From a virus (Duplodnaviria > Caudoviricetes): a DNA stretch of 56,876 nt. The position numbers and the translations under genes were made by a program. Below the pieces are notes generated by a model. It saw nothing but the letters and a program-made list of their open reading frames with translations, ran no database searches and was not told the origin of the DNA. The stretch spans positions 1 through 56,876 of the IMG/VR virus record IMGVR_UViG_3300025890_002227, one strand, 5' to 3'. Below, one piece after another: positions 5,320-35,656 of the stretch (position 1 is the stretch's first letter; the number at the start of each line of letters is the position of its first letter).

Positions 5320-5320
5320 G

Positions 5321-6559: not shown

Positions 6560-6623
6560 GATTATTTTCCTATTGTTTTCGCGAAAACCAATTCTGATTA
6601 AACTGGCTATAGGTAATATTTAT

Positions 6624-12427: not shown

Positions 12428-12544
12428 TTATTTTTCTGAGCCTTCGCCTACGAAAGGAATGAGTTCCCACAAACCTTGTGATTCGCCCCATAATGCGATG
12501 GCAATGACAGCTACTACGCCAATTATAAAATATTTCTTATTCAT
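12428..12544 (-). CDS. Small membrane protein (38 aa, not in ORF track)
   Basis: MNKKYFIIGVVAVIAIALWGESQGLWELIPFVGEGSEK; AGGAGA SD; single hydrophobic helix. Confidence 0.7.
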   Translation of the reverse strand: MNKKYFIIGVVAVIAIALWGESQGLWELIPFVGEGSEK

Positions 12545-17687: not shown

Positions 17688-18557
17688 TTAGTTTATATTT
17701 TTTAGTATGTCTTGTATTAGATTCTGTTGTTCTGTTGTCAAGTTTGTTGGTATGCTTATTTTTAATTCTACTAATAAATCTCCGTAGACGTTACTGTCCA
17801 TAATGGGCATACCTTGTCCTCGTAAAACCATTTTTTGCCCGGGTTGAGCGCCATTAGGTATTTTAACTTTTAGTTCTTTTTCTGTTAATGTTTTAATAAT
17901 TTTCTCTGTGCCAAGCATTGCTTCAAAGCAGGTTAGGTTTATAACTGTAAATAAATTTTGTCCGCTTCTTTCATAGTGCGGATCGTTTATTACATCAATC
18001 GCTATTAGCAAATCACCAGCAGGTGCTCCATTTGCCGCGTTATCTCCTAACCCGCGCATACGCATCGTTTGCCCTGCTATAACACCTTTTGGTATTTGAA
18101 CGTCTAGCGTTTTTGTTTCACTGCCAGCGTTATACTTTACTCTCTTAGTGCAACCTTCATATGCTTCTCGCAATGATACGTTTATTTTTATGTGAATATT
18201 TCTATTACGGGTTTGCTGGTGGCGTTGTCTAAAAGGACTCCTTCCGTTTCCAAACATTTCACCAAATATATCTTCTACATTAAACGGGTATTCAGCATCA
18301 CCTGTAGACCATACGTGTGGGCCATGGCCAAAGTTATGAGCGTGTGGTGCTCCATACTTTCGTAAGTGGTCGTACTCTTGTCGTTTGTCGCTTGATAGCA
18401 CATCGTTTGCTTCGTTTATTTCTTTAAACCTGTCAGCATTACCCCCTTTATCTGGGTGGTTTTGTTGTGCTAACTTACGATATGCTTTCTTAATCGTGGA
18501 GGCATCTGCATCTGCGCTTACGCCAAGTATGTTATAGTAGTCTTTATTTGGATCCAT
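17688..18557 (-). CDS. dnaJ: DnaJ-class (type II, CbpA-like) co-chaperone
   Basis: J domain with HPDK, G/F region, C-terminal domains, no CxxCxGxG zinc finger. Confidence 0.92.
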   Translation of the reverse strand: MDPNKDYYNILGVSADADASTIKKAYRKLAQQNHPDKGGNADRFKEINEANDVLSSDKRQEYDHLRKYGAPHAHNFGHGPHVWSTGDAEYPFNVEDIFGEMFGNGRSPFRQRHQQTRNRNIHIKINVSLREAYEGCTKRVKYNAGSETKTLDVQIPKGVIAGQTMRMRGLGDNAANGAPAGDLLIAIDVINDPHYERSGQNLFTVINLTCFEAMLGTEKIIKTLTEKELKVKIPNGAQPGQKMVLRGQGMPIMDSNVYGDLLVELKISIPTNLTTEQQNLIQDILKNIN

Positions 18558-21985: not shown

Positions 21986-22357
21986 CTACTTTTCGTTATT
22001 TTGTTTATAGTATTTTTCGTAAGCAACAATAATCGCATTTTGTTGTTGAATTAACTTACGAAGTGCGGCTATATTCATGCTTAGGTTCTCATAACCCTTA
22101 TCTGTTAGACCGAATATAGCACCATCGATGTTGTTCTTTTCAAGTTTGTAAAAAACTTCTTCGTAGTTGTCAACAGTGATAATAGTCCATTCGACGTCTT
22201 TTGCCTCAAATGGTTTAATTGATGGTAGTTCTATATCAATTCTTTCAACAGGTTGCACGACTACAGGTTTGTTACCTTTTTTGGGAGTTAATGAGCATCC
22301 TTGCAATGCAAATGTAGATATGATCAAAGCAATTGTAAATAATTTTATTCCTTTCAT
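21986..22357 (-). CDS. Putative o-spanin lipoprotein
   Basis: Signal peptide with lipobox LQGC; GYENLSMN.A.LRK.I.QQ..II..Y..YY; follows a TM plus coiled-coil gene. Confidence 0.7.
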   Translation of the reverse strand: MKGIKLFTIALIISTFALQGCSLTPKKGNKPVVVQPVERIDIELPSIKPFEAKDVEWTIITVDNYEEVFYKLEKNNIDGAIFGLTDKGYENLSMNIAALRKLIQQQNAIIVAYEKYYKQNNEK

Positions 22358-22360
22358 CTT

Positions 22361-22849
22361 TTATTCCTCTTCTGGCTTGTAGTTAGGATTGGCTAGTGAA
22401 GGGCATTCAGAGTTGATTTGACTTGGTTTTACTGCCGCTATTTCTGCTTCACTAAGCGGACTTCCGCTTAATATTTCAAAACACCTCAGTGCATTTTTGG
22501 ATGCATTAGTAATGACCTTACCAATTGGCCCTGGTTTATTTTCAGCAAGTTTGCCGATATCGCGTGTGCCAAAATACTTAGACACTTTGTTAAATTTCTT
22601 TTCAAGTCTGTCATAACTATCTTGGGCGTTATCAAACTTTGTTTCAAGATCGTTTAAAACTTGTGTCATAAGCATACGGTCTTCTTCTGCACGAAGTCTT
22701 GCTTCTTCTGCTAAGGCTAATTGCGTTTCTTTAATAGCCATTTCCGCAATCATACGTGCTTTTTCTTCCTCGTTATTTTGATACCATACGTAACCACCGC
22801 CAGCACCTGCAAGAACGATTAAGAGTAGTATTGAGTTAAATCCAAACAT
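22361..22849 (-). CDS. Putative i-spanin
   Basis: N-terminal TM helix, long coiled coil, C-terminal Cys pair. Confidence 0.65.
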   Translation of the reverse strand: MFGFNSILLLIVLAGAGGGYVWYQNNEEEKARMIAEMAIKETQLALAEEARLRAEEDRMLMTQVLNDLETKFDNAQDSYDRLEKKFNKVSKYFGTRDIGKLAENKPGPIGKVITNASKNALRCFEILSGSPLSEAEIAAVKPSQINSECPSLANPNYKPEEE

Positions 22850-22876
22850 AAATAGAGTCCTCTTGTTAGTATACTA

Positions 22877-22912
22877 AGTATACTATAAATTTATTGATGT
22901 GTCAAGTATTTA
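22877..22912 (-). promoter_or_regulatory. Tandem TAAATA and sigma70 (TTGACA-17-TATACT) promoter upstream of spanins
   Basis: TAAATA 22912-22907, TTGACA 22905-22900, TATACT 22882-22877; AGTATACT palindrome occurs twice. Confidence 0.6.
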
Positions 22913-23404
22913 CTACTTAAAGGGGATTCGGGCGTTGATCTTGAGTTGTTCTAACTCTTTTAGCATAGATTGCTGTCTTGCCATAAACAAGTCATAATCT
23001 TCAGCATTTAGAGGAATTCTAGAGATAAGTTCTTGATAGTTAAGAGTTTTTTCGCTTTTATAATGCTTAAATGAAAATTTTTCAACACTAGTAAGTCTCT
23101 CTAAACCATCTAAAACTTCCTGAAACATTGTAGGGAAATTTTCGCTTCTTTCAGATTCTACAAACACAACAAAGTCGCCGTCAATATTTTCACTTGATAC
23201 ATTATCAGCGTCGATTATTTCCGTATAACCTCTTTCTAAAAATGAAACCATATCTTCACTTGCATTTTTAGTTTTAACGTAAAATGCTATAACAATAATA
23301 TCTCTATCGTCACCTACTTTACTTTTGTGTTTGTCAACACGAACAATGGAGTTTACTAATCCGCCCAAATCGCCTTCGGTAAGATCTTCGTTTAACTGAT
23401 TCAT
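22913..23404 (-). CDS. Conserved hypothetical jumbo-phage protein
   Basis: DKHKSKVGDD.DIIVIAF...FLERGY...DAD; translationally coupled to the upstream gene. Confidence 0.75.
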   Translation of the reverse strand: MNQLNEDLTEGDLGGLVNSIVRVDKHKSKVGDDRDIIVIAFYVKTKNASEDMVSFLERGYTEIIDADNVSSENIDGDFVVFVESERSENFPTMFQEVLDGLERLTSVEKFSFKHYKSEKTLNYQELISRIPLNAEDYDLFMARQQSMLKELEQLKINARIPFK

Positions 23405-23952
23405 TATATTAGTTCTTCTTCCATTTCAGGAGCGGCCGCCGCTTGATCTAAGTTTTGCTGTTCTGCTTCTTCAACGTCTTGTAGATCAATAGTTTCTCCA
23501 GCATATTCAATAGAACCACGCTCAATACTAGTCATTAAGTCTCTAGGTATTTTAATAGTAACAGTCCAAATTGGTGATTCAATTGTTTTAATATCTTCAT
23601 AATTCGTATTGTCACCCACAGGGCGTCTTGGGTATGATTCTAAATCTTTAACTGGCCTTGTTAAATTTGTTTTCTCATAGGTAACAGTAATACCATAATC
23701 TAACAATCGTTTTGCTCCTAACGGATTAGGCATTAGTTTATATGGCCACATAAATGCACACTCTACAAAATGTCTGCCATGCGCCGGCCCACTAATTAAT
23801 TCGCCCTTTTTCCAGTTATCAAAAACGTATAGATCAAGATTGTCTAATACACGCTCAAAATCTAATAGATTCTGTAATGCGTTGTCGCTCATATAAACAT
23901 TTTTGGTATTATCTAGAACATCATACAGTTTAATTCTGTTATCTTGCTTCAT
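23404..23952 (-). CDS. Conserved hypothetical jumbo-phage protein; start likely ATG 23952
   Basis: LLDFERVLD.LDLYVF.NW.KGEL..GP...RHFV...FMWP..LMPNP.GAKRL; TATAAATA 5 nt before ATG 23952. Confidence 0.8.
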   Translation of the reverse strand: MKQDNRIKLYDVLDNTKNVYMSDNALQNLLDFERVLDNLDLYVFDNWKKGELISGPAHGRHFVECAFMWPYKLMPNPLGAKRLLDYGITVTYEKTNLTRPVKDLESYPRRPVGDNTNYEDIKTIESPIWTVTIKIPRDLMTSIERGSIEYAGETIDLQDVEEAEQQNLDQAAAAPEMEEELI

Positions 23953-23965
23953 ATACTTATTTATA

Positions 23966-24511
23966 CTAATTAAAGTATCTACGGTAGTCTCTAGGACCAC
24001 CGTACCAATGTACTTCTGTATGTAAGTTTTTAGTATTAGCCTTTAGTATATGCTCTTCCCACCAGTCTGGATGCTCTACTGTACAATGTGCGTTTTCACC
24101 GTTAGGCAATATTTGTATAGCGAGTCTTGTACATATAGCAAGATATACAAATTTCTCTGCTCTTTCAAACATTTGCGTTAGTGTTTTTGGTATTGCTACC
24201 GCAGGAATATGCTCTAATACGTCAGTTGAAATAACACCGCAGAATGTACCATCTGGTAACGTGCTATGCTCTGGAAATCCTGGATCATACAAGAATATAT
24301 TTTCATCATCAATATTAAAACGTCTATTAGCATGGTTATCAGTGTATTGCCTACCCTTACCACATCCATAGTCTAATACAGTTTTAGCATTGTGCTTGTT
24401 TACTAGTATCTCAATTTGAGGTATTTCTTTACCTAAACTTACTCCAGGAAACTTATCACTGTCAGTGTGTGCTTGTTTGTATTGTTCTATATATTTTTGT
24501 TCTAAATCCAT
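23966..24511 (-). CDS. Class I SAM-dependent methyltransferase
   Basis: VLDYGCGKG motif I, YDP, STDVLEHIP. Confidence 0.88.
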   Translation of the reverse strand: MDLEQKYIEQYKQAHTDSDKFPGVSLGKEIPQIEILVNKHNAKTVLDYGCGKGRQYTDNHANRRFNIDDENIFLYDPGFPEHSTLPDGTFCGVISTDVLEHIPAVAIPKTLTQMFERAEKFVYLAICTRLAIQILPNGENAHCTVEHPDWWEEHILKANTKNLHTEVHWYGGPRDYRRYFN

Positions 24512-24515
24512 TTTA

Positions 24516-25265
24516 TTACACCATAAAAATATTATTAGCGTTTCCTGATTCTATAATTTCCCTGGTGCGATCTGTTTTTAAACCTGTCAATAATAGTGTA
24601 GTTCTAAGCGTATTAGAAGCATTTGCTGTTGCGTGAGGAACATTAGCCCAATCAAATGTATGACAATCACCTGCTTTCCAGTTTGTATACGTATATGTTC
24701 CGTACTGATAAAACTGACCAGGTTCCCAGTCAGTAAGAAATATTGATATTCTGCAGATTTGTTCTGGATTCGATGGCTTCCAATCCCATAGTTTATCAAT
24801 ATGTCTGTTAAACATTTGTCCAGTGTGTTGGACATGACTGCGATATTTTTTCTTTAATCCTTCTGATAAGTCTGTGGATTCAGTTAGTGCAAAGTAATCA
24901 CACATAGATTTAAGCACTGGTAAGTTTGAAAAGTCGTCAAGCATATTAGATAGTTCTAATTTAGGATCGCCGTGGCCTTGAAGAATATCATATTCTTCTT
25001 GCTCAAGCATCGGAGACACATCATCATATTCGCCAAAATACTTTCTAGTTTCCCAACTAATTGCTTTGCTCTCATCGATAATTGTTTGCATTTCTTGTTG
25101 CCAAGATTCTGGATTTGGAAATCTTCCTAAGATCTTAAACCACTCACCTTCTTTATCTTGTCTTTCATTATCGAAATGATATTCGCTGTTTGAAACTGTC
25201 CAATCCCAACTGCTTTTATATGTAGCAGGATCTGTTAGTTTTTTATTCCAATCTGTAGTGTGCAT
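24516..25265 (-). CDS. Putative 2OG-Fe(II)/cupin oxygenase
   Basis: GQMFNRHID (HxD), IFLTDWEPGQF, WKAGD, PHATAN distal His, R.TL. Confidence 0.7.
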   Translation of the reverse strand: MHTTDWNKKLTDPATYKSSWDWTVSNSEYHFDNERQDKEGEWFKILGRFPNPESWQQEMQTIIDESKAISWETRKYFGEYDDVSPMLEQEEYDILQGHGDPKLELSNMLDDFSNLPVLKSMCDYFALTESTDLSEGLKKKYRSHVQHTGQMFNRHIDKLWDWKPSNPEQICRISIFLTDWEPGQFYQYGTYTYTNWKAGDCHTFDWANVPHATANASNTLRTTLLLTGLKTDRTREIIESGNANNIFMV

Positions 25266-26773
25266 TATGTATAATCAAGTCCTTTGTCTTTTCTTACTAT
25301 ACTATTTACTAAAATACCAATGCTAATTACAATGCAAATAAGAAAAATAGGATGATTGTATATATTAAACAGTTCAAGCCATCTAAAATCTGCCATTGAA
25401 CTGAGACCAGGCTTCCATTGCTTATATCCATATAGTTGCAATGTTCCCCAAAAATACTCATCAATCTTAAATGCTACAACATATGCGACAAGAATAGCCG
25501 GCCTACTTATGTTAAACATTTTACATACAACACCAATCGCGCTTAGAATGGCTAATAGTGCCAAATCTTCCCAACCACCTGTATATTGCATATTAGCGTA
25601 GACAATTACTCCTAGAATAAATGTTGCGTAAATCCAAAAAGGAACTTCTAAGATTTTTAGAATATACTTGTATAAGAATATACTTAATAATGCTACACCC
25701 ACTGTTCCAAATATATAACCAAATGCTAAACTGTTTGTAAACTGTAGATCGTCTAGTAGACTAGGCGTGCCAATTTCCATACCAAAATACATACAAATTG
25801 CCATAACCATAGCCGCAAATGGTGCGGCTGGTATTCCAAATAAACACGCAGGTATCATACTAGATACTTTTTGTGCGTTATTTGCTCCTTCACAGCCTAG
25901 CAATCCAACAGGGTTGCCTTCACCAAACGGAACTTCTTGATCATCTTCTTTGTGTGCCGCTTTTGTGGCGCCGTATGCTAGAAAGTCGCCTACTGCTCCT
26001 CCTACACCTGGTAATAATCCAGTAACAAACCCGATTAAGCCACCGCGTATCATATCTTTCCAATTTTTTCTAACGTCACCAAAGCCTTGCTTTAAGCCTT
26101 TCCAGTAATTACCTTCAAGTGGTGGCGCCGCTGATTTTAATTGCCTTCTAAATCCGTCTAATAATTCTGGAACTCCAAACAATCCTGAAAGCAACACAAC
26201 CATTCCAATTCCATTTTGTAAGTATTCCCAACCGAAAGTTAATCTTGGATTACTTACGACATCTTCTCCTACCATACCCACTGCTAGTCCAAATATAATA
26301 GCACAAGTGCTTAGGAAGATACTCTTGCTGGCTACAAAGCCTACGCAGGCTAATGCCATTGTCATAAATCCTAAAAACTCCGGGCGTCCAAATAATACTA
26401 TAATTTTTCCATAGTATGGAAGTAAAAAGAAAGTTAATGCCGCAAATACGACACCATTAAATGTTGAATCAGCAATAGCAATTCCCATTGCTCTCGCCGC
26501 CTGGCCCTTCTTTGCCATTGGATAGCCGTCAATAACACAGGCCGCTGTTGTACTTGCGCCAGGTATACCAGTAAGAATACTAGTATAACTATCAGCACTG
26601 GCGCAACTTGCTACAATAGCAGTTAAAAAGACCAATCCTAGATAAGGATCAGCCATAAAGTATGCGCCCATACTAAAGACAGTTATCAAGGCGGTAGTAA
26701 CACCTGCTATAGGAATAATTCCTACTAACATTCCATAAGCGGTGCCAACTAACGCCCAGATAACATAATCCAT
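25265..26773 (-). CDS. tctA: Tripartite tricarboxylate transporter large permease TctA
   Basis: Polytopic membrane protein; TSIL.GIPG...AACVIDGYPMAKKG.A, GLLPGVGG, E.ANNA, GIP duplicated motifs. Confidence 0.9.
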   Translation of the reverse strand: MDYVIWALVGTAYGMLVGIIPIAGVTTALITVFSMGAYFMADPYLGLVFLTAIVASCASADSYTSILTGIPGASTTAACVIDGYPMAKKGQAARAMGIAIADSTFNGVVFAALTFFLLPYYGKIIVLFGRPEFLGFMTMALACVGFVASKSIFLSTCAIIFGLAVGMVGEDVVSNPRLTFGWEYLQNGIGMVVLLSGLFGVPELLDGFRRQLKSAAPPLEGNYWKGLKQGFGDVRKNWKDMIRGGLIGFVTGLLPGVGGAVGDFLAYGATKAAHKEDDQEVPFGEGNPVGLLGCEGANNAQKVSSMIPACLFGIPAAPFAAMVMAICMYFGMEIGTPSLLDDLQFTNSLAFGYIFGTVGVALLSIFLYKYILKILEVPFWIYATFILGVIVYANMQYTGGWEDLALLAILSAIGVVCKMFNISRPAILVAYVVAFKIDEYFWGTLQLYGYKQWKPGLSSMADFRWLELFNIYNHPIFLICIVISIGILVNSIVRKDKGLDYT

Positions 26774-26777
26774 AATT

Positions 26778-27830
26778 TTAGTCTAAAAGTTCAGGCTTAT
26801 AAACTGATGGGAAACCATATGCTTCTTGGTTCCATCTAACTGCGTCCCTAAGGGCTTTCTCTGTAATTAAAGATTTTAGTGCCGCCAATAATGATGGACC
26901 ATCTTGAATCCACGGATATACTCCCGTCTTTGCGTAAATTTCTGCTGATGCAACCGGATCATTAATCATTGCAGTTACAGCCGCTTTAACTTTTGCCGCA
27001 TTTGGATTACCTTTGTTCATCCAAAGTGATTTTTGTATTGCATCACGCCAGTTACGAGTAAGTTTATATGCGTTATATAAATCGCCTGAAGGTCTTTCGC
27101 CCCATAGTGACTCATAAACATCTTCAAACTGTGTGTTAGGAAAGTTTGGATCTGCAATTTGTACATTGTTTTCTAGATCTAGAATACCGTGTGTAAACCA
27201 AAGTTCGTTGCCAGCGATGCCTTCGTAAAAGCGTTTCCAAGCCGCTGGTGATTCACGGGCAACATCAAATTCTCCGTTTTTAAATCCTAGGCGCTTTTCA
27301 CCGCCTGATACACCGTTAACCCAAATAACACGCTCTCTCCAACATGCCAAGTATTCATCGACAGTGTTGTCGCCTTGTGGTCCACATAGTAACATTGCAA
27401 CTGCCGCCGCATCTGGTTCAAAACCTGAGCCGCCCGCAATTGTCCAAGTTCCTTCTTTTTCTTGGGCACCTGCGTGTTTACCTAATACGATGTCGTTGTT
27501 CATTGAACCAATTAGTTCATAGTCAAAGTAGTTGTAATCAACCTTGTCTAGCAAGTATGATACACCATTACCACCGTGAGCAACCATAATTGTTTTGTCA
27601 TCAAAACGTAGGCTGTTGTGGAATTTATTAAATCCAGGAATATCTCTTGCACCTGGAATATGGCGTACTACTACTGGTTCACCAATGAACTTTTCTAGGT
27701 TTTTTGCAATAATTTCGCTCCATACCGAAGTACCCTTACCAGGTGCTTGGGGAACAATCAAAGTATAATCAGCTAATGCTGGTAGTGCGATGCCCACCGA
27801 AAGCATAAGTGAAAGAATCAAACGTTTCAT
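26778..27830 (-). CDS. tctC: TctC/Bug-like periplasmic substrate-binding protein (divergent)
   Basis: Signal peptide ending ALA-D, IVPQAPG.GT, LEK.IGEPVVV..IPGA; adjacent to tctA; AAGGAG SD. Confidence 0.75.
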   Translation of the reverse strand: MKRLILSLMLSVGIALPALADYTLIVPQAPGKGTSVWSEIIAKNLEKFIGEPVVVRHIPGARDIPGFNKFHNSLRFDDKTIMVAHGGNGVSYLLDKVDYNYFDYELIGSMNNDIVLGKHAGAQEKEGTWTIAGGSGFEPDAAAVAMLLCGPQGDNTVDEYLACWRERVIWVNGVSGGEKRLGFKNGEFDVARESPAAWKRFYEGIAGNELWFTHGILDLENNVQIADPNFPNTQFEDVYESLWGERPSGDLYNAYKLTRNWRDAIQKSLWMNKGNPNAAKVKAAVTAMINDPVASAEIYAKTGVYPWIQDGPSLLAALKSLITEKALRDAVRWNQEAYGFPSVYKPELLD

Positions 27831-27870
27831 CTAATTTCTCCTTGTTGAATAATGTTGTTTAATTTTGTTT

Positions 27871-27909
27871 ATTCGTGACGAGTATTCGTGACGAGTACTC
27901 GTGACGAGT
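27871..27909. repeat. Three tandem 13-bp near-palindromic repeats a(t/c)tcgtgacgagt
   Basis: attcgtgacgagt / attcgtgacgagt / actcgtgacgagt read directly from the sequence. Confidence 0.95.
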
Positions 27910-27919
27910 GTTGGGGGGA

Positions 27920-27958
27920 TAACTCTAATGAACTTCTTTCGGAGCGTTATTAAAGTTA
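27920..27958 (-). promoter_or_regulatory. Stem-loop at the 5' end of the tctC leader
   Basis: taactttaat...attagagtta outer stem, inner aac/gtt and GAAA-capped hairpin; TAAATA promoter at 27970-27965. Confidence 0.5.
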
Positions 27959-27994
27959 GTATATTATTTATCAATTAGTACAGATTTACTATAA

Positions 27995-28678
27995 TTATTT
28001 TGACCACCATTCAGTTCCCGGTTTTGCATGTTCTTGTATCTTAGCACGAGCTATTCTATCTAACTCCGTCTCTTTAACAGGGGAAACGTACTTGGCATTG
28101 GCATTGGCTTTTAAAATTTCATTAATTAATGGATTGTCGTATGCAATGGGGAAATCTAGTATCTTACTAAGATATTTTAAATATCGATGTTCGTATAGGC
28201 ATAGCATTTCATGACTAATATAATCTGGGTTTAGATTTACTAGTTGTTGGTCAATTGCTTCGAGCATATGCATATAAGTTACTCGACTGCGTAATCGTTC
28301 TTGTTGGGCTTCTAATATGGTTTTATCTCGGCCAATAATTGCCACTTGAACTGACCATCCGTTTTTAGTTGCCCCATTAATAAATTCTTTAAACGGAGGT
28401 ATTGTTGTTACTCCATTTTGAACATAAGGAACAGAAATACTGACGCAGGCATATTTGTAATTTCCAAAGTCCGCAGTGTTCCATTCAGATGGATTATTCC
28501 AGAACTTATTAAAAGGTTCTAAATCGTGTGCTACCCAATAAGTCTCATTAAGTTCCTTCCAACCAAAGACTTCCGGATGCAACTCAAATACTTTGCTGTA
28601 CATGTGGTTTCCGGACCCCTGTGGTCCAACTAATAGCAATAACTTTTTATTATCCACTCTGTTACTTTGCCCAAACAA
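27995..28678 (-). CDS. P-loop sulfotransferase/kinase-like protein
   Basis: LLLVGPQGSGNH P-loop-like segment, IIGRD. Confidence 0.6.
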   Translation of the reverse strand: MFGQSNRVDNKKLLLLVGPQGSGNHMYSKVFELHPEVFGWKELNETYWVAHDLEPFNKFWNNPSEWNTADFGNYKYACVSISVPYVQNGVTTIPPFKEFINGATKNGWSVQVAIIGRDKTILEAQQERLRSRVTYMHMLEAIDQQLVNLNPDYISHEMLCLYEHRYLKYLSKILDFPIAYDNPLINEILKANANAKYVSPVKETELDRIARAKIQEHAKPGTEWWSK

Positions 28679-29303
28679 AATACATTCTATTCTTGTAATC
28701 TGTACGCAAGTCTAATACAGTAACTCCTAAAAAGTCTGCTGTATTAATAATAAATGTAGGTGTCCAATCATAAAACTGTATCCAATCTGCCTCCATTGGA
28801 TCATGCTTTAAACCCGGATTAACTCTAAAGAATATTTTACCACCGAGCGAGGTTAGTTTAACTACACGCTCTAACTCATCGAGTATTTTAGTCGTGTCGC
28901 CAAAATTGATAGAGCCTAAACACAATACTACATCATACGTAATATCGGGATCGTAATCCATAATGCCTTGCATAACGTCTGCTTTTGGATTATATGGATC
29001 TAAACCTGTCAGATTATGTATGTTTCCTCTAAACTCATTATATCCGCATCCAACATCTAAAACATTCTTTGGATTAAGTTTATTAACTTCATTAATTAAA
29101 GCAGGGCCACTATATTTGTATTTTTTAAGTTCGGGTTGCCATACTCTAGAAAAATATTGTTCTAATACTTTGTCGTCTACTTTATCTACTAACTCACCAA
29201 TGTGATTAAACGAAACATCATCTACCCATACATTAAAAATACCCTGTATGGATTGGCGTAGTTTGTGTTCGTCGCGTAGTATTTGAGTAGAGGTTTTAAA
29301 CAT
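28662..29303 (-). CDS. Class I SAM-dependent methyltransferase; start likely ATG 29303
   Basis: VLDVGCGYN, GLDP, YDVVLCLGSINF; GAGGA SD before 29303. Confidence 0.85.
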   Translation of the reverse strand: MFKTSTQILRDEHKLRQSIQGIFNVWVDDVSFNHIGELVDKVDDKVLEQYFSRVWQPELKKYKYSGPALINEVNKLNPKNVLDVGCGYNEFRGNIHNLTGLDPYNPKADVMQGIMDYDPDITYDVVLCLGSINFGDTTKILDELERVVKLTSLGGKIFFRVNPGLKHDPMEADWIQFYDWTPTFIINTADFLGVTVLDLRTDYKNRMYFVWAK

Positions 29304-29332
29304 ATCCTCTAGTTGTTTTAGGATTTTTAAAT

Positions 29333-29950
29333 TCACAGTACACACACCTTTAGATCGTTTTCTTTGTATATTTGATAAGGATTACCATATGGTAGTGCAA
29401 TGCCCAAGGCGTAACTTAATTGTTCGTTGTCCTCAACATTCCATTTTAGTTTATGTTTTTTCATAAATGCCTTTATGTGTTTGTTTTGTAAAGCAATTTG
29501 CTTCTTCATATTGGCGTCATTTTTATACCAAGCGTAATTCGGATACTTGATATCAAATCCGCCAGCTTCTTTCCACCAATCAAAGCAACTACTGTTTGAT
29601 CGATATACTAATACTATTTTAGCATAACTCCACGTTTCATGCAAGTAACCTAAGCCTGTTGCGAACGTGTGGCTCTTAATAATTCTATACTTGCTTTTGT
29701 TCAGTATGCCTTTAAATGGTTTATTAAATTCTGCTTCGTTTTGTTTATCATCTCTGCTACTAATATCGTTAAACCAATTGCCGTATTCCATACCTGGATC
29801 AAAGTATGATCCACGGTGTGTTGCAACACCATGAGTGTATTGTCTTTCTTCAGATTGGTCTGTGCTATCTATTGTTTTAGAACTGCTGATATTTGCCGCA
29901 ACGCTACTCCAGCGCGAGCCTGGCGCGCCAGTAAGGAAAATGTAACTCAT
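29333..29950 (-). CDS. Sulfotransferase-like P-loop protein
   Basis: IFLTGAPGSRWS, IIKSH, IVLVYR sulfotransferase-like motifs. Confidence 0.6.
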   Translation of the reverse strand: MSYIFLTGAPGSRWSSVAANISSSKTIDSTDQSEERQYTHGVATHRGSYFDPGMEYGNWFNDISSRDDKQNEAEFNKPFKGILNKSKYRIIKSHTFATGLGYLHETWSYAKIVLVYRSNSSCFDWWKEAGGFDIKYPNYAWYKNDANMKKQIALQNKHIKAFMKKHKLKWNVEDNEQLSYALGIALPYGNPYQIYKENDLKVCVL

Positions 29951-29993
29951 ACACTTACTTATATATGAGTTACATTATTTCGTTAAACTTTGA

Positions 29994-30749
29994 CTAGTCT
30001 TCGTCGCCGTATATTCTTAATACTTCTTCCACAACGACGTGGCGTCTAATGTCTTGTTGCTCGAACTCTATGGATCTAATATGATCAGCATGATATTTGT
30101 TTAACAAATGCTGAAACTCATATAAACCATTATCTCTCATTCTGTCACTTTGGTTCAAGTCACCAGTCACTACCATTCGGGAATCATCACCTATGCGTGT
30201 TAATAGCATTTTCATTTGGCTTCTTGTAGCATTTTGCATCTCATCTGCAATAATAAATGCCCGCTTAAATGTTCTGCCTCTCATATATGCTAACGGAGAT
30301 ATTTCAATAATATCCTCATCAATCATACGTGAAATATTTTTTAATGAATAATACTCTTTAAATACGTCAAAAATTGGTCTTGTCCACGGTTCCATTTTTT
30401 GTTGGATTGTTCCTGGCAGAAAGCCGTGTTGTTCATCCACTTCTACTGCTGGTCGTGTTAATACAATTTTATCTATTTTATTTTCTGAAAATGCTTTAAG
30501 TGCGGCTAAACATGCTAACATTGTTTTGCCTGTGCCTGCTGGTCCTGATGCAAATACGATTGTATTGTGCTGGTTTAATAATAAATCTATGTAATCTCTT
30601 TGGTTAGTTGATCTTGCCTGTAATTTAATGTTAGGCTTTTTTATATACTTTGTTTTTCCATAATATTTTTCAAACTCAATGATATTTTCGTCCATTAAGT
30701 CATAAGCGTTGTTACTGCGACGTTTATGACGAGTTCTTCGTCTTGACAT
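29994..30749 (-). CDS. phoH: PhoH-family ATPase
   Basis: GPAGTGKT, LTRPAV, GFLPG, AYMRGRTF, ADEMQN, TRIG, GDLNQSD. Confidence 0.96.
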   Translation of the reverse strand: MSRRRTRHKRRSNNAYDLMDENIIEFEKYYGKTKYIKKPNIKLQARSTNQRDYIDLLLNQHNTIVFASGPAGTGKTMLACLAALKAFSENKIDKIVLTRPAVEVDEQHGFLPGTIQQKMEPWTRPIFDVFKEYYSLKNISRMIDEDIIEISPLAYMRGRTFKRAFIIADEMQNATRSQMKMLLTRIGDDSRMVVTGDLNQSDRMRDNGLYEFQHLLNKYHADHIRSIEFEQQDIRRHVVVEEVLRIYGDED

Positions 30750-30883
30750 TTTCCACCTCGCTTAATTTTAAATTCTACACAGTAATTGTGTAGTAAAAAT
30801 ATTTAATGTAAGAATCGATTAAATTATAGTGCAATATATTCATTATAAAAGTTTAATAAATAAATTTCTAATAAATATTCTTA

Positions 30884-32266
30884 ATGGATAACAAACATAT
30901 CAATATTATAATCTATGATGATTTAGATAATTCCGACGAAGAATATAACGAACGTGTAAGAGGAATCACAAAACATTTTACATGGCTGTCAGACAAAGAT
31001 ATCTCTATAACTACTGATCTTAGCAACACGCTAAAAGAACTTGCAAACAATGTAAAAGAAGAAAACAAGTGGGCATTAATTGTCACCACTGGGCATGCTA
31101 TACATACCAATTCAAAAGATTTTTTTAACTTAGCAGTGAAAAAATGTGAAGAAGCAAACTCTCCATTAATGGGTCATGTATTACATAATCCTGCACACGA
31201 CTATTTTCCTTATCCGTACTTACATAATCAATGCATAGTATTAGACTTGCTTGTTTGGAAAGAAATCGGATGCCCGATGTTCGAATGGGTCCATCCTGTT
31301 GACCATAAAATAAACAATTTAGTTAGGAGTGCAGAAAACTTTCACGACGAGTACACGCCTCACTGGGTAGGCCCTGATAAGACTGACGAAGTCGTAACCT
31401 TAGAACACAGAGAGTTTGGCAGTGTAGTAATAGAAAAACTTGCAGAGGCAGGGCATCGTATTATTAACTTTGACGACGAACTTAGACTGCAAAAGTGGCA
31501 TCTATATCCTACTGTCGAATACGAAACACTTAATAAGTTTTTTAAAACAGGAGAAATAGACACAGAGTCTAATCTGTATAAAAGTGCTATATATCAGGCA
31601 GTACAGCAAAAAGAATCTTTAAACCATACCGTTTACATACTTAACACAGAAGGAATTATAGCTGCTCCTCTTGGGCAATGTGATGATATAAAAACTCCTG
31701 TTGACCATTATATTGTAGTTGCAGGAGGATTTAAACCAGCACTGCTTGCACATACATATGGTCACCATAAAAATACAAAAATAACAGTTATGGATATTAG
31801 CGATGCAGGTATAAACTTCCAAAAATATATGAGAGAAAATTGGAATGGTGATCTTACAGTATATCCGCGACATATTCTTGATTTTGGTAACGCTTACCTT
31901 GATTATGATTTAGCGTGGTGCAGTTGGAATTCTATGGAAAGTGAGATAAACAAGTTTTTAGAAGAAGTAAATTTAACTTCAAGCGAGTTTCAACAAGCAT
32001 GGCAAGAATATTGCAATATAGAGTGCGACTATGTTAAAACAGACTTTTTAACTGATCCTAGCAAACTAATAGAAGCCATTAATACAGGAGAAAACAAAAA
32101 CTTTTATATATGGGTTAGCAACGCCTTTGATATGACTTGGACTGTTTTCATGTTAGGACAAAAAAACACGATGGATAAGTTTGATTCATTGCTAAAGCAT
32201 TTTGAAGAATCTAAAAACAATATTACTATTGAGGCGAGGAATCTATATAGGACGTATAACTGTTAG
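30884..32266 (+). CDS. Hypothetical protein, possibly a two-domain modification enzyme
   Basis: 460 aa ORF; RS.ENFHD.YTP.W; C-terminal VAGGFK..DIS..WVSNAF resembles a SAM-binding fold; ATAAATA 6 nt before ATG. Confidence 0.7.
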   Translation: MDNKHINIIIYDDLDNSDEEYNERVRGITKHFTWLSDKDISITTDLSNTLKELANNVKEENKWALIVTTGHAIHTNSKDFFNLAVKKCEEANSPLMGHVLHNPAHDYFPYPYLHNQCIVLDLLVWKEIGCPMFEWVHPVDHKINNLVRSAENFHDEYTPHWVGPDKTDEVVTLEHREFGSVVIEKLAEAGHRIINFDDELRLQKWHLYPTVEYETLNKFFKTGEIDTESNLYKSAIYQAVQQKESLNHTVYILNTEGIIAAPLGQCDDIKTPVDHYIVVAGGFKPALLAHTYGHHKNTKITVMDISDAGINFQKYMRENWNGDLTVYPRHILDFGNAYLDYDLAWCSWNSMESEINKFLEEVNLTSSEFQQAWQEYCNIECDYVKTDFLTDPSKLIEAINTGENKNFYIWVSNAFDMTWTVFMLGQKNTMDKFDSLLKHFEESKNNITIEARNLYRTYNC

Positions 32267-32888
32267 GAACCACATTATTCCAATATTCGCTCGCTTCGCC
32301 GCCGTGTATAATCATATGATATCTGTTTTCATTACTGCGATTCCAAACACAATGATTGTAACTAGTATTAAATGCCATAGCACCTCCTGAATCTTTAAAA
32401 GGAACTATACCTACTCCCTCGACAACCATATTACAATCCTTTGGATTGTTAAGACTAATATTAACCGCACATAAAGACCAATCATCTGCATCATTGTGCG
32501 GTGTTATATAACCGCCAGGGGACAATCGCATATAGCGAAGTCTTTGATAACACCCATATGGAAACTCATTTTTAAAATACTCTGCTGTGATAGGGCATAA
32601 ATCTGCTACTTCTGTCCAACTATGTTCTTGTCCTGCGTGTTCAGGATATGATTGATCTGAGTCTGTTTTAGTTGCGCCGTAACCATGTATACATAAACTT
32701 GCCCATCCCACGCTATAATCATCTCGATGTGGAACAAACATATGGTCTACAGACTTTGCTTCTTCTAACATTTCTTTCCACGGCCCGTCTATCAATAGCG
32801 GGAGATAAGGTGTGGTTTTGTGTTCAAATTCCTTAGGAAAAGAATATGTAAGGTTAACGTTAGAATTATAAAATTCTTTTAAGTCCAT
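32226..32888 (-). CDS. Aspartyl/asparaginyl beta-hydroxylase-like 2OG-Fe(II) oxygenase; start ATG 32888
   Basis: RLRYM.LSPGGYITPHND (HxD), NISLNNP, FNTSYNHCVWN.S...RYHMIIHG. Confidence 0.85.
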   Translation of the reverse strand: MDLKEFYNSNVNLTYSFPKEFEHKTTPYLPLLIDGPWKEMLEEAKSVDHMFVPHRDDYSVGWASLCIHGYGATKTDSDQSYPEHAGQEHSWTEVADLCPITAEYFKNEFPYGCYQRLRYMRLSPGGYITPHNDADDWSLCAVNISLNNPKDCNMVVEGVGIVPFKDSGGAMAFNTSYNHCVWNRSNENRYHMIIHGGEASEYWNNVVPNSYTSYIDSSPQ

Positions 32889-32913
32889 GCAGATATTTAT
32901 ACTAAATAGATTT
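32889..32913. promoter_or_regulatory. Back-to-back TAAATA promoters for divergent leaderless genes
   Basis: Minus TATAAATA (32901-32894)-N5-ATG 32888; plus CTAAATA (32902-32908)-N5-ATG 32914. Confidence 0.65.
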
Positions 32914-34215
32914 ATGCGCCTCACTGAAAAGAATAAACACGTTTATTGCCCGGCGCCGTTTCATGAACAGATGGTTGATTCCGATGGAACATTTAAACCA
33001 TGCTGTTCTGCTAGACACACCATTCGCAATGATGACGGTACAGAAGCCAATATCGCTAATAATACACTAGAAGAGGTTTGGAATAACAAGCACATGCAGG
33101 AAATTCGTCAAAATATGATTGACGGAGTCAAACCTTCCAATGACATGTGTGAGAATTGTTATAGTCACGAACGACAAGGTACTGGCAGTAGTAGAATAAA
33201 CGAATTAGATCAATACAATGACTATGTAGATACTCCTATTGTCGAAGAACTTCCCGATTACTACGATTTAAGATTTGGCAACTTGTGTAATTTACAATGT
33301 ATAATGTGTGATCCTCACTATAGTTCGAGATTAATGACGGAACAAGAAAAAGTATTTGATCTATTAAAACAAGAAGAGTTTAGTAACAATAATTTATATT
33401 CTTGGTATAAAAATTCTAATACCGTATGGAATAGATCAGATGCACAAAAATATACTTGGCCCACTAATAATAAAATTTTTGATCAGATTACGTCGCAAAT
33501 GGCAGAATCGAATTGTAGAAAAGTCTATGTTAACGGTGGAGAGCCTACTTTACATAATAAGTCACTAATTAAAATGCTCAAACTATTAATTGAAAATGGG
33601 CAAGCAAAACATATAGAACTTTGGATTAATACTAATGCTACAATTGTTGACTTAGAGTTTTATAAATTGCTTAACAATTTTAGACAGATACGTTTAATGT
33701 TGAGTATAGACGGTATAGAAGAATCATTTGAATATATCAGGTATCCTGCTAAGTGGATTATAATAGATTCTAATATTAAAAAAATTACAAATTTTATAGC
33801 AAGTTTAAAAGACGTTAATAAGTGGAACGTAGAATTTCAACCTACGTTTCAACTACTTAACCTATTAGATATTAATCGAATGATCGAATATTGGCTAGAT
33901 GTAAAGAAAAATATAAATTGTTCTTTTACTTTAAATAAATTAAATAATCCACCGTGGTACGATGCTATAATTGCAAATGATGCCATTAAAAAGAGTATTA
34001 GTGATGAGACCCATTTAATACAAAATACTGATCGAGATTTTTTAATAATAAAATCCTTTTTAAGTAACAGTTTAATGCCTCAACATTCATTAAATGAAAA
34101 TAATCGCATAGAGTTACTCGATAGTACTGTGGCAATACACGAAATCTATAAAAAAACTAGAAATATAGATTATCTAAATATGTGGTTTTATAATACAATA
34201 GAAAAATTAAAATAA
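32914..34215 (+). CDS. Twitch/SPASM-domain radical SAM protein; start ATG 32914
   Basis: YCPAPF..DG.FKPCC..C.NCY N-terminal domain; DLRFGNLCNLQCIMC; NGGEP; SIDG...FEYIRYPAKW. Confidence 0.9.
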   Translation: MRLTEKNKHVYCPAPFHEQMVDSDGTFKPCCSARHTIRNDDGTEANIANNTLEEVWNNKHMQEIRQNMIDGVKPSNDMCENCYSHERQGTGSSRINELDQYNDYVDTPIVEELPDYYDLRFGNLCNLQCIMCDPHYSSRLMTEQEKVFDLLKQEEFSNNNLYSWYKNSNTVWNRSDAQKYTWPTNNKIFDQITSQMAESNCRKVYVNGGEPTLHNKSLIKMLKLLIENGQAKHIELWINTNATIVDLEFYKLLNNFRQIRLMLSIDGIEESFEYIRYPAKWIIIDSNIKKITNFIASLKDVNKWNVEFQPTFQLLNLLDINRMIEYWLDVKKNINCSFTLNKLNNPPWYDAIIANDAIKKSISDETHLIQNTDRDFLIIKSFLSNSLMPQHSLNENNRIELLDSTVAIHEIYKKTRNIDYLNMWFYNTIEKLK

Positions 34216-35567: not shown

Positions 35568-35656
35568 TGGTACCCGGAGCCGGACTTGAACCGGCAAGGC
35601 CATTACAGCCGATGGATTTTAAGTCCATTGTGTTTACCAAATTTCACCATCCGGGC
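35568..35656 (-). tRNA. tRNA-Leu (TAA)
   Basis: GCCCGGA acceptor, anticodon stem atgga/tccat with loop CTTAAAA, long variable arm, GGTTCAAGTCC, encoded CCA. Confidence 0.95.

Follow-up and report, generated by a model that had tools for sequence, protein, structure and literature searches.

A phage-encoded TctA permease and TctC-fold binding protein without TctB, linked to putative tailoring enzymes

Introduction

Why would a phage carry genes of a tripartite tricarboxylate transporter (TTT), and what do they have to do with the enzyme genes around them? The window (the whole stretch of DNA analysed here, 56,876 nucleotides) is part of the genome of an uncultured marine jumbo phage, with an estimated completeness of 16% (CheckV). 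Relatives of this phage span 307–343 kb. The initial annotation described seven contiguous same-strand genes, in which a TctC–TctA transporter is embedded among tailoring enzymes, and proposed an uptake-plus-modification module. All seven ORFs are present on the minus strand, as listed below; the observation as a whole is confirmed in part, and the interpretation is supported in part. Roux et al. (2014, PMC4164917) noted tctA as a putative auxiliary gene, with its role given as unknown, on viral contigs of SUP05 that come from uncultured marine viruses. The part of that report drawn on here gives a TctA domain match only, and describes no solute-binding protein, TctB absence, or linked enzymes. 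We found no paper in the literature describing a phage cassette of TctA and a binding protein.

29333..29950, minus strand: minimal sulfotransferase-fold protein, 205 aa (AlphaFold model closest to PAPS sulfotransferases)
28662..29345, minus strand: MT2, probable class I SAM methyltransferase, 227 aa (Methyltransf_23 below cut-off; VLDVGCG)
27995..28678, minus strand: P-loop protein, 227 aa, possibly a second sulfotransferase-like enzyme (GPQGSGNH loop)
27831..27994, minus strand: intergenic leader of the binding-protein gene (repeats and ribosome-binding site)
26778..27830, minus strand: periplasmic solute-binding protein (SBP), TctC/Bug fold, 350 aa (AlphaFold and structure searches)
25265..26773, minus strand: TctA permease, 502 aa (PF01970)
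24516..25265, minus strand: probable Fe(II)/2-oxoglutarate oxygenase, Asp/Asn-hydroxylase-like, 249 aa (HxD...H...R motif)
23966..24511, minus strand: SAM methyltransferase, 181 aa, specific to the window genome (Methyltransf_23)

Results

The binding protein and its leader

The SBP had been called TctC-like and divergent from canonical Bug proteins. It has no Pfam or NCBIfam match, even at E≤10. Its AlphaFold model (pLDDT 94.5, pTM 0.90) is closest in fold to TctC/Bug proteins, among them BugD, BugE, AdpC, MatC, TphC, and Bug27. Ranks 1–16 of a Foldseek search are all TctC/Bug (E 3e-9 to 7e-7), as are the top 11 PDB entries in VIA (Z 17.0–22.3; next class 13.8). A transitive sequence link points the same way. 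A phmmer search over 1.84 billion representatives returns 319 hits; PF03401 matches 10 of the 30 distant full-length relatives scanned, two of them above the cut-off; and a profile of the binding protein and its relatives matches 11 TctC/Bug PDB sequences at E 1.7e-23 to 2e-12. In accordance with the earlier description, the predicted structure, together with this link, identifies the 350-aa protein as a very divergent TctC/Bug-fold binding protein. Compared with solved TctC proteins, it is ~50 aa longer, 11–18% identical, and invisible to the Pfam model. A signal-peptide-like segment at the N-terminus, ending ALA|DY, suggests that the protein would be exported to the host periplasm.

The leader contains three tandem 13-nt units (about 27872–27912) and an AAGGAG ribosome-binding site, and has no Rfam match. 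Among the 33 loci read, the 13-nt repeats occur only in the window (three copies) and in its nearest relative, L022 (two copies).

TctA and the two-gene unit

TctA matches PF01970 (E 4.1e-86, 289.7 bits), which bears out the permease call. It is of ordinary length and has no TctB-like extension, with 10–11 hydrophobic segments and only one beyond residue 440. The motif G-x3-G-x3-G-x2-P-G-x-G, described for TM1 and TM7 of TctA (PMC5812351), is readable at residues 244–258. Across 38 sequences (39–91% identity), 96 columns are invariant; the protein is full-length and strongly conserved. The remark that TTT genes are unusual cargo for phages needs softening, as 422 IMG/VR stretches encode a TctA relative.

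Only 4 nt separate the end of the binding-protein gene from the tctA ATG, which leaves no room for another gene. The TctB profile PF07331 has no match at E≤10 in the window, nor any in five related viral records, including the complete 342.6-kb genome of one relative; conservation of TctB is so poor, however, that a profile search without matches says little about its absence (PMC5812351). Shadow ORFs aside, no small ORF in the window has several hydrophobic segments. No TctB was found beside the pair in 32 loci; a small ORF with multiple hydrophobic segments lies near it in only five of these, and its position varies. The claim that no small TctB lies between or beside the pair thus holds for the window, and a tctB elsewhere in the genome is likewise not found with PF07331 in the complete relative. 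Of the arrangements that had been proposed, a two-component system is supported as a TTT-type pair without TctB.

TctA adjoins the SBP gene in 32 of 33 distinct loci retrieved with the SBP, the remaining one being cut by a contig end. Conversely, the SBP gene is adjacent in 66 of 68 distinct loci retrieved with TctA, both misses being contig-end cuts, and in all 54 of the viral loci that extend at least 1100 nt to either side. Wherever a related locus is uncut, the two genes share a strand and are neighbours, in either order (SBP>TctA or TctA>SBP). The TctA and SBP genes behave as one unit.

Ancestry of the pair

Twenty phage TctA sequences form one clade (SH-aLRT 100) with a long stem (2.36) and deep internal branches, outside the host copies among which they might have been nested. 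Cellular TctA, sampled from 401 genomes, is at most 33% identical to phage TctA. In 185,579 species genomes, the binding protein occurs on five MAG contigs only, all with the same phage cassette. The cassette is phage-restricted, with deep ancestry.

This bears on the alternative that a host TTT operon was captured recently, or that bacterial DNA was mis-binned as viral. Marine Proteobacteria commonly carry TTT genes, which, according to a preprint, belong to the flexible gene pool of Pelagibacterales. However, the clade is monophyletic and deep, with at most 33% identity to cellular TctA from the 401 genomes; the window also encodes a clamp loader, dUTPase, virion proteins, and PhoH; and the relatives include the 342.6-kb record, which is complete and has terminal repeats. 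We regard recent capture or mis-binning as extremely improbable.

Comparison with cellular systems

Among cellular systems, the nearest relatives found come from the Roseobacter group and other Proteobacteria; they are TTT systems of two genes, in which TctA is long. The long TctA is 30–33% identical to phage TctA, versus 25–30% for ordinary TctA, and groups with the phage clade (SH-aLRT 100). These loci share the SBP-then-TctA order and the absence of a separate tctB. An upstream binding protein of 366–442 aa is present in six of six loci read, and the phage protein matches it at E 5e-17 to 2e-8. On the Sagittula sp. P11 plasmid NZ_CP021914.1, for example, WP_100931108.1 is annotated 'tricarboxylate transporter' and the 676-aa permease WP_100931107.1 'tripartite tricarboxylate transporter permease', with a '4-oxalomesaconate tautomerase' at the same locus.

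The differences lie in the permease and the neighbours. The bacterial long permeases (653–695 aa) carry 3–5 extra hydrophobic segments past the last TctA helix (12/12), and one such extension matches the TctB model at E 4.4e-5, below the cut-off. Phage TctA stops where the aligned long bacterial TctA run on for ~160–170 aa. PrpF-family isomerases (6/6), two-component regulators (4/6), and hydroxyacid dehydrogenases are found at the bacterial loci only, and not in the phage cassette. A clade of all long TctA forms is not rejected by the AU test (p 0.316). The phage lineage may have lost a TctB-like extension or may have split off before the fusion.

To our knowledge, every TTT system characterised so far has a TctB, either as a separate subunit or fused, and in TRAP transporters the small subunit analogous to TctB is an essential component, as reported in PMC5812351. 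Therefore, a pair without TctB might be inactive or need a host subunit. In that case the pair would not be autonomous, requiring a host TctB or serving a non-import role, such as a periplasmic decoy or receptor or a block of a host transporter; the TctB-like extension of the closest cellular relatives also fits this. Against it, phage TctA is full-length, strongly conserved, and always accompanied by the SBP, and archaea are reported to have TctA homologues that lack both TctB and TctC (Winnen et al. 2003, cited in PMC5812351). Archaeal TctA shares with the phage protein the lack of a recognisable TctB, but the SBP is absent there and always present in phages. We consider a non-autonomous pair very unlikely.

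The neighbouring enzymes

The gene at 29333 had been called sulfotransferase-like, a call that Pfam barely reaches (Sulfotransfer_3, E 0.25) and that is borne out by the model. The AlphaFold model of the 205-aa protein has a pLDDT of 93.9. In VIA (48,161 chains), PAPS sulfotransferases account for all nine chains with Z≥8; the best match is TPST1 (Z 11.2, rmsd 3.7, 165 aa), and kinases reach at most 7.8. The family has an invariant G-x-P-G-S-x-W-S loop together with R117 and H94, and 9 of 20 members match Sulfotransfer_3 at E≤0.1. The fold is common with TPST/Sulfotransfer_3-type PAPS sulfotransferases, but the phage protein is much smaller than these enzymes (270–390 aa) and falls below every Pfam cut-off, and its use of PAPS is putative. 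The gene is found in 37 of 38 TctA>SBP loci and 13 of 28 SBP>TctA loci.

The methyltransferase call for MT2 stands in so far as the motif VLDVGCG is present and Methyltransf_23 matches at E 0.0015; the score (18.7 bits) is below the cut-off of 27. MT2 is present in 34 of 38 TctA>SBP and 21 of 28 SBP>TctA distinct loci. The gene at 27995, described as sulfotransferase- or kinase-like, does have a P-loop, the invariant GPQGSGNH, and has no Pfam match among 19 members; the nearest named clusters in Atlas are Sulfotransfer_3 (0.92), a lead only. It possibly encodes a second sulfotransferase-like enzyme. It occurs in 22 of 28 SBP>TctA loci and in none of the 38 TctA>SBP loci.

The protein encoded at 24516 has no Pfam match in the window, but the initial call of a 2OG-Fe oxygenase is upheld by the family motif: H155-x-D157 is invariant and H211-x9-R221 nearly so (H211 and R221 each in at least 90%). 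The nearest named Atlas cluster is viral Asp_Arg_Hydrox (0.97, 207 shared features), and 9 of 42 family members weakly match Asp_Arg_Hydrox (PF05118). It is a probable Fe(II)/2-oxoglutarate oxygenase of the Asp/Asn-hydroxylase-like kind. Its start and the tctA stop share one base (TAATG), confirming the overlap noted before. The gene is present in 27 of 28 SBP>TctA loci, in most of which about 11 nt or fewer separate it from tctA, and in 10 of 38 TctA>SBP loci. Several oxygenase paralogues occur per locus. In L022, which is 99% identical to the window, virion genes directly follow the oxygenase gene.

The methyltransferase at 23966 is real (Methyltransf_23, E 2.1e-7, 31.3 bits; phrog_24759) but is not a member of the module, being found in none of 32 and none of 68 related loci. 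It is a local insertion outside the conserved cassette. A SPASM/radical-SAM gene and a second Asp_Arg_Hydrox gene lie 2–4 kb from the cassette.

The neighbour set is mosaic in content and order across loci. Tailoring-type genes are nevertheless kept beside tctAC across phage lineages, which refutes the possibility that the neighbourhood is not conserved.

In some relatives the P-loop gene is immediately followed by an APS-kinase-like gene (14/28 SBP>TctA loci) and a small nucleotidyltransferase gene (13/28). These genes raise the possibility, voiced in the initial annotation, that the transporter supplies a co-substrate: PAPS-dependent sulfation would draw on sulfate or a sulfonate, or the oxygenases on 2-oxoglutarate. 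The several oxygenase paralogues per locus would suit the latter, and sulfolactate and dicarboxylates are listed in a table of TTT substrates (PMC5812351). However, the APS-kinase gene is absent from the window, from L022, and from all 38 TctA>SBP loci, yet the pair is kept in them. Moreover, we know of no TctC protein that binds sulfate. Supply of a co-substrate in this sense is quite unlikely.

Discussion

The canonical TTT (TC 2.A.80; Salmonella TctCBA, Bordetella BctCBA, and the Bug proteins; PMC5812351) and the phage pair have in common adjacent genes for TctA and a TctC-fold SBP. The phage pair differs in being encoded by a virus and in lacking TctB. Instead of catabolic or regulatory genes, it has sulfotransferase-fold, methyltransferase, and oxygenase-like genes beside it.

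What do the linked enzymes act on? That they act on the imported solute is an inference from linkage only. Peptides or proteins are serious rival targets because the sulfotransferase-fold protein is nearest to TPST and the oxygenase-like protein to Asp/Asn hydroxylases. The importer and the enzymes would then be separate: the enzymes, with the nearby radical-SAM/SPASM proteins, would modify a phage product, a virion protein, or a host target, and the pair would scavenge nutrients independently while sharing a variable island. In structure, the 205-aa protein best matches tyrosylprotein sulfotransferases (Z 10.4–11.2), Asp/Asn beta-hydroxylases are the sole family leads for the oxygenase-like family, the second Asp_Arg_Hydrox gene and the SPASM/radical-SAM gene are close by, and the island is mosaic. 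On the other side, the sulfotransferase-fold and MT2 genes stay no more than 5 kb from the pair in 37 and 34, respectively, of the 38 TctA>SBP loci, which represent the deepest alternative gene order, and the oxygenase gene is coupled or close to tctA as described above. In addition, the fold match exceeds that to nucleotide kinases by a modest margin (11.2 vs 7.8) and does not fix the acceptor. Separate functions appear somewhat unlikely.

We favor, tentatively and with a probability of about 0.48, the reading that the phage imports a specific seawater compound through a TctB-less TTT pair, either to modify it or to feed the linked enzymes. The cleft of the exported SBP would capture a small anionic solute, most likely a carboxylate because known TctC proteins bind carboxylates. 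The SBP would pass the solute to phage TctA in the inner membrane for import, which by family would be ion-coupled. The pair is inherited with cytoplasmic enzymes: nearly every lineage has a sulfotransferase-fold protein and a methyltransferase. To these the branch of the window adds the Asp/Asn-hydroxylase-like oxygenase, probably translationally coupled to tctA, and the second P-loop protein, and about half of that branch the putative APS kinase and small nucleotidyltransferase. The imported compound may be hydroxylated, sulfated, and methylated by the phage, or be used to feed its enzymes.

The permease and its gene neighbourhood

Seven ORFs form a contiguous run on the minus strand of the window, as described in the initial annotation.

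23966–24511 (−), methyltransferase
24516–25265 (−), probable 2OG oxygenase
25265–26773 (−), TctA permease, 502 aa
26778–27830 (−), TctC-fold binding protein (SBP), 350 aa
27995–28678 (−), P-loop protein, 227 aa
28662–29345 (−), methyltransferase-like protein (MT2)
29333–29950 (−), putative sulfotransferase-fold protein, 205 aa

At the sequence level, the identity of TctA is unambiguous. PF01970 matches residues 5–428 with E 4.1e-86 and a score of 289.7 bits, far above the cut-off of 28.9. A review of tripartite tricarboxylate transporters (TTT) describes a repeated motif, G-Hy3-G-Hy3-G-Hy2-P-G-Hy-G, in TM1 and TM7 (PMC5812351). The phage permease reads G244-GLI-G248-FVT-G252-LL-P255-G256-V-G258, and TM1 carries the variant G10-TAY-G14-MLV-G18-II-P21-IA-G24. 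The motif glycines and prolines are invariant in 38 relatives, and the alignment of 38 sequences has 96 invariant columns. The SBP gene ends 4 nt before the tctA ATG, and the tctA stop codon overlaps the start codon of the oxygenase-like gene in the sequence TAATG, the coupling that had been noted earlier.

The binding protein has a TctC fold

The SBP has no Pfam or NCBIfam match even at E ≤ 10, PF03401 included, so the label "TctC-like" was a guess that needed a test. A phmmer search over 1.84 billion representatives gives 319 matches at E ≤ 0.001. Among 30 distant full-length relatives scanned, 10 match PF03401, two of them above the cut-off, and one cluster of relatives with such a match is named TctC by IMG. 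A widened profile of the SBP and 56 relatives retrieves 11 Bug/TctC PDB sequences with E 1.7e-23 to 2e-12; a profile of the close phage relatives alone reaches three Bug structures at E 0.5–0.9 only.

The AlphaFold model of the SBP (99 sequences) has a pLDDT of 94.5 and a pTM of 0.90. In Foldseek, ranks 1–16 are all TctC/Bug proteins (E 3e-9 to 7e-7). In VIA, the top 11 entries are all TctC/Bug proteins, including BugD (Z 22.3, rmsd 3.0 over 269 aa) and 4x9t (Z 17.0), and the next class is PtxB/PhnD at Z 13.8. The SBP is 11–18% identical to solved TctC proteins and about 50 aa longer. Transitive homology, the model, and the TctA context agree, indicating that the SBP is a very divergent TctC-fold protein. 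The earlier label is therefore borne out by the fold and by distant homologues, and a direct PF03401 match is what it lacks.

Export of the SBP is predicted from its N-terminus alone, which is signal-peptide-like (MKRLILSLMLSVGIALPALA|DY) and forms a low-confidence helix in the model. One idea is that the invariant aromatic residues could serve as a cage for betaines or DMSP.

Just upstream of the SBP gene (27872–27912, minus strand), there are three tandem 13-nt units, ACTCGTCACGA(G/A)T, which could form a hairpin (fold z −2.85). We rejected these repeats as a conserved regulator; they are found only in the window and in its nearest relative, L022 (99% identical), which has two copies.

The two genes are inherited together

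Searching with the SBP retrieves 39 viral loci and 5 genome-collection loci, which reduce to 33 distinct ones. TctA adjoins the SBP gene in 32 of the 33, and the remaining locus is cut by a contig end. Two gene orders occur: SBP>TctA, to which the window belongs, in 27 loci (gap 7–32 nt), and TctA>SBP in 5 (gap −2 to 121 nt). Searching IMG/VR with TctA gives 594 pattern matches and 422 tblastn-confirmed stretches, the best 80 of which represent 68 distinct loci. In 66 of these, tctA has the SBP gene as its same-strand neighbour, and both misses lie at a contig end. When at least 1100 nt is present on both sides, adjacency is complete among the best 80 of 422 (54/54 loci, 27 per order).

The enzyme genes recur around the pair to different extents.

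Genes within 5 kb of the pair in loci from the best 80 of 422 stretches (SBP>TctA, n = 28; TctA>SBP, n = 38)
Oxygenase-like: SBP>TctA 27/28; TctA>SBP 10/38
P-loop 227-aa family: SBP>TctA 22/28; TctA>SBP 0/38
MT2: SBP>TctA 21/28; TctA>SBP 34/38
Sulfotransferase-fold 205-aa family: SBP>TctA 13/28; TctA>SBP 37/38
APS-kinase-like: SBP>TctA 14/28; TctA>SBP 0/38
Small nucleotidyltransferase: SBP>TctA 13/28 (counted for this order only)
23966-type methyltransferase: SBP>TctA 0/28; TctA>SBP 0/38

In relatives, the P-loop gene is directly followed by the APS-kinase-like gene, which scores 33.1 bits (cut-off 21.1), and then by a gene for a 136-aa cytidylyltransferase-like protein; some loci also encode PNP/MTA-nucleosidase-type and HIT proteins. 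All four of these genes are absent from the window and from L022. The neighbour counts and this locus-variable set indicate that the island is a conserved pair within a mosaic of recurring enzyme genes. The enzymes had been proposed to be syntenic with the phage transporter; this applies to the recurring neighbours and fails for the 23966-type methyltransferase.

In locus L011 (and in loci L012–L014 and L028), the DNA about 170 nt upstream of the SBP gene appears, by eye, to encode pieces resembling the N- and C-terminal parts of TctA. These may be left over from a second or rearranged tctA and would then point to recombination of the cassette.

No TctB accompanies the pair

PF07331 (TctB) has no match at E ≤ 10 in the window, nor in any of five related records, two of which are a complete 342.6-kb genome and a 90%-complete one. 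TctB is stressed to be very poorly conserved (PMC5812351), so absence by profile is in itself weak evidence, and the stronger part of the case is gene order. There is no gene between or beside the SBP gene and tctA that could be TctB. Small ORFs of the window with several hydrophobic segments are antisense shadows of longer genes. No small multi-TM ORF is conserved near the pair in the fetched flanks of 32 distinct loci; ORFs of 60–260 aa with at least three hydrophobic segments occur in 5 of them, at different places and on different strands. Nor is a TctB fused to the permease: after residue 440, TctA has one hydrophobic segment, as in ordinary TctA, and no extension. The earlier observation that tctB is missing from beside the pair extends, at the level of the TctB profile, to the window and the five relatives.

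The pair is not a recent capture

When 185,579 species are scanned, one genome per species, SBP relatives turn up on only 5 contigs, all from MAGs of unrelated taxa. The same cassette is present on every one of the five, alongside PhoH, virion, and spanin-like genes in one case. TctA matches occur in 107 of 401 genomes sampled from one phylum. Across the 401 genomes, ordinary TctA (~500–515 aa) is 25–30% identical to phage TctA. The best cellular matches (30–33% identical, E 1e-54 to 1e-61) come from 11 genomes and are open frames of 658–697 aa.

These long permeases consist of PF01970 and a C-terminal extension. Phage TctA stops where the long forms run on for ~160–170 aa, and the long forms have 3–5 extra hydrophobic segments in 12 of 12 cases. 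One extension has a match to the TctB model that stays below the cut-off (E 4.4e-5). TctAB fusions are reported to exist as rare cases (PMC5812351).

In each of six long-TctA loci, a binding protein of 366–442 aa that matches the phage SBP (E 5e-17 to 2e-8) is encoded just upstream, and a PrpF-family gene is adjacent; four of the six also have a response regulator and a sensor kinase. For example, a plasmid of Sagittula sp. P11 has genes annotated as tricarboxylate transporter, tripartite tricarboxylate transporter permease (676 aa), 4-oxalomesaconate tautomerase, universal stress protein, and D-2-hydroxyacid dehydrogenase. Because of the PrpF and dehydrogenase neighbours of these bacterial cousins, an aconitate-type or hydroxy-acid carboxylate is hinted at as the ancestral cargo, a lead by analogy. 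A 768-aa protein (P0225; contigs up to 453 kb) has a PrpF domain fused to an SBP-family domain, which fits the PrpF genes adjoining the bacterial cousins.

We built a quick maximum-likelihood tree from the first 470 residues of 46 TctA sequences, for which the program warns of long-branch joins. A single branch (SH-aLRT 100, stem 2.36) separates the 20 phage sequences from the rest. Phage and long forms share a group (100) that excludes the 14 ordinary TctA. With ordinary TctA as the root, a single long form is the first to branch off, in which case the phage lineage would have lost the TctB-like domain. In AU tests, neither monophyly of the 12 long forms (p 0.316) nor a phage clade nested within the long forms is rejected. 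Whichever the order of events, the phage pair is not a recent capture, which answers, for the genomes sampled, the concern that the genes might nest among host copies as a recent single acquisition.

The neighbouring enzymes

The product of 29333–29950 gives an AlphaFold model (36 sequences) with a pLDDT of 93.9. Foldseek finds nothing at E ≤ 0.001 for it, the top entry being TPST2 at E 0.038. Independently of Foldseek, a VIA comparison with 48,161 chains gives nine with Z ≥ 8, all of them PAPS sulfotransferases: TPST1 (11.2, rmsd 3.7 over 165 aa), tick TPST (10.5), TPST2 (10.4), an olefin-synthase sulfotransferase domain (9.6), Stf9 (8.9), Stf1 (8.8), 3-OST-5 (8.4 and 8.2), and 3rnl (8.2). 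Nucleotide kinases score at most 7.8. Sulfotransfer_3 matches the protein at E 0.25 and 9 of 20 relatives at E ≤ 0.1 (best 2.7e-4), all below 27 bits. The family invariants are G8, P10, G11, S12, W14, S15, and R117; we take the G8–S15 loop and R117 to resemble, by sequence, the 5'-PSB and 3'-PB motifs. On the strength of the model, we accept a sulfotransferase fold.

The product of 24516–25265 is probably a 2OG oxygenase, judged by its motifs. H155-x-D157 is invariant and H211-x9-R221 is present in at least 90% of 42 sequences, providing the iron triad HxD/E...H and the basic residue for the 2OG carboxylate. The protein itself has no Pfam match; among its 42 relatives, PF05118 (Asp_Arg_Hydrox) matches 9 weakly (best E 0.0029), 2OG-FeII_Oxy_3 matches two, and PhyH matches one. 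The ESM Atlas places it with a viral Asp_Arg_Hydrox cluster (0.97, 207 shared features). An hhalign comparison of the family with the window's own AspH-like protein is non-significant (E 0.34), though the motifs line up.

The product of 27995–28678 has an invariant GPQGSGNH loop and no family match; an Atlas value of 0.92 to sulfotransferase clusters is a lead. When the two P-loop families are compared by hhalign, only a 29-column loop region aligns. Profiles of the oxygenase-like, P-loop, and sulfotransferase-fold families give chance-level matches only against PDB sequences. The true start of 27995–28678 is uncertain. The Atlas record begins at residue 26, which would cut off the loop, and a longer TTG-start ORF overlaps the end of 28662–29345 by 17 nt.

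A VLDxGCG motif is present in both 28662–29345 and 23966–24511. The former has a methyltransferase match of 18.7 bits, below the cut-off of 27, and the latter matches Methyltransf_23 with 31.3 bits (cut-off 27), which makes it a bona fide methyltransferase, specific to the window genome. PADLOC finds no defence-family match, apart from a 15.9-bit mad2 match to 28662 that comes without a matched stretch.

Taken against these data, the enzyme names of the initial annotation fare unevenly. The sulfotransferase-like assignment of 29333 holds by fold, with family matches below 27 bits. The oxygenase name of 24516 is made probable by the HxD...H...R motif, and the protein itself has no Pfam match. 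Of the two methyltransferases, 23966 keeps its identity and loses its place in the module, and 28662 stays below the cut-off.

As for what the enzymes do, the linkage and the TAATG overlap between tctA and the oxygenase-like gene would be consistent with enzymes that act on, or depend on, the cargo of the importer. The main rival is that they modify a peptide or protein, which fits the fold and family leads (the TPST fold, the Asp/Asn hydroxylase leads, and nearby SPASM/radical-SAM genes) equally well. The radical-SAM protein of the window (32887–34215, +) has SPASM at residues 21–92, N-terminal to the core at 130–308, the reverse of the usual domain order. A homologue (28% identical) lies at 14440–15882 of L005, the complete 342.6-kb relative, and such a gene ends the cassette in relatives.

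The phage and its distribution

Besides many host-like genes, the window encodes a clamp loader, DNA-polymerase pieces, dUTPase, PhoH, virion structural proteins, and a spanin-like protein. CheckV estimates its completeness at 16%. Relatives with the same locus measure 187–343 kb; one of them, with direct terminal repeats, is rated complete. Its gene content and the size of these relatives mark the window as part of the genome of an uncultured marine jumbo phage. Seven studies of sea or estuary water contain near-identical DNA, matching at least 95% of sampled words, in a total of 15 DNA runs; once rows flagged as possible sources are removed, 4 runs of 4 studies remain.

In a DNA search with the window, phoH is the sole match to cultured phages. 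Tblastn against phage records finds nothing for the SBP and, for TctA, only 22–32% matches in gut contigs and bacterial-type records. Metatranscriptome contigs (150–330 nt, 0–1 mismatches; two runs of one study) match 24516, tctA, the SBP gene, 29333, and phoH; DNA carry-over is possible, so we do not count them as expression. Over 22000–32000, Rfam has no match. Promoter-like sites (30 versus 34 in shuffles) and terminator-like sites (3 versus 4.5) show no excess.

The window also contains the following genes.

47–1162, Glu/Leu/Phe/Val-type dehydrogenase
3305–4456 (+), IMPDH/GMP-reductase-type enzyme
7283–8341, DAO-family FAD oxidoreductase
8338–8610, small cupin
12537–13424, 295-aa protein with a cytidylyltransferase-like domain
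14925–17234, Lon/Clp-like ATP-dependent protease
17227–17679, peptide deformylase
17688–18557, DnaJ
38558–38971, Cpn10-like protein
48377–49537, DegP-like trypsin and PDZ protease
53262–54245, type IV pilin
35568–35656, tRNA-Leu (taa), alone
56257–56519, tRNA cluster Ile (gat), Ser (tga), Leu (tag)

The first five are host-like metabolic genes and the next six concern proteostasis or the envelope. In L005, ClpX, translation initiation factor IF3, ribosomal protein S21, Hsp20, and ClpS are encoded just upstream of the cassette (2655–7119).

Discussion

The phage pair is a conserved, phage-restricted, TctB-less, virus-encoded TTT system with a re-modelled TctC, located within a mosaic enzyme island. 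The full-text literature holds no description of the cassette that we could find, in line with the earlier suggestion of an undescribed module; supplementary files could list further viral tctA matches. In SUP05 viral contigs, tctA is mentioned as a domain match of unknown role (PMC4164917), a mention cited in a review (PMC6359870). Variable TTT operons are described for Pelagibacterales genomes, not phages (2026 preprint 10.64898/2026.10.07.757358).

Because the two genes are strictly co-inherited, TctA is strongly conserved, and the TctC fold is confident and of the closed type, the pair most likely works as a TctB-independent, binding-protein-dependent importer. To our knowledge, such importers are rarely credited to viruses.

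A more far-reaching proposal, to which we assign a probability of only about 0.3, is that a large phage-only lineage has long kept a TTT importer pared down to TctA and a re-modelled TctC, while the nearest cellular cousins have a fused TctB-like domain, and that compound-specific uptake feeds hydroxylation, sulfation, and methylation or supplies sulfur or carbon. If this is true, the phages would provide a natural demonstration that TctB is dispensable in binding-protein-dependent transport, and giant ocean phages would equip the infected cell with a high-affinity uptake route of their own, dedicated to a single dissolved compound. The imported compound would be hydroxylated, sulfated, and methylated in the infected cell, giving a phage-specific metabolite, or would provide the sulfur or carbon for this kind of chemistry; an activated sulfate supply based on APS kinase would even come with some relatives.

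With 422 tblastn-confirmed stretches in IMG/VR, the two-gene importer is widespread in uncultured marine phages. Transporter biologists gain a naturally TctB-less TTT system to set beside its fused TctA–TctB cousins, so that the role of TctB, long unclear, can be tested directly. In marine virology, the importer directs attention to one particular dissolved compound whose uptake, and possibly transformation, by infected cells would be under phage control. The SBP is a soluble, confidently modelled target, and a ligand screen could name that compound.
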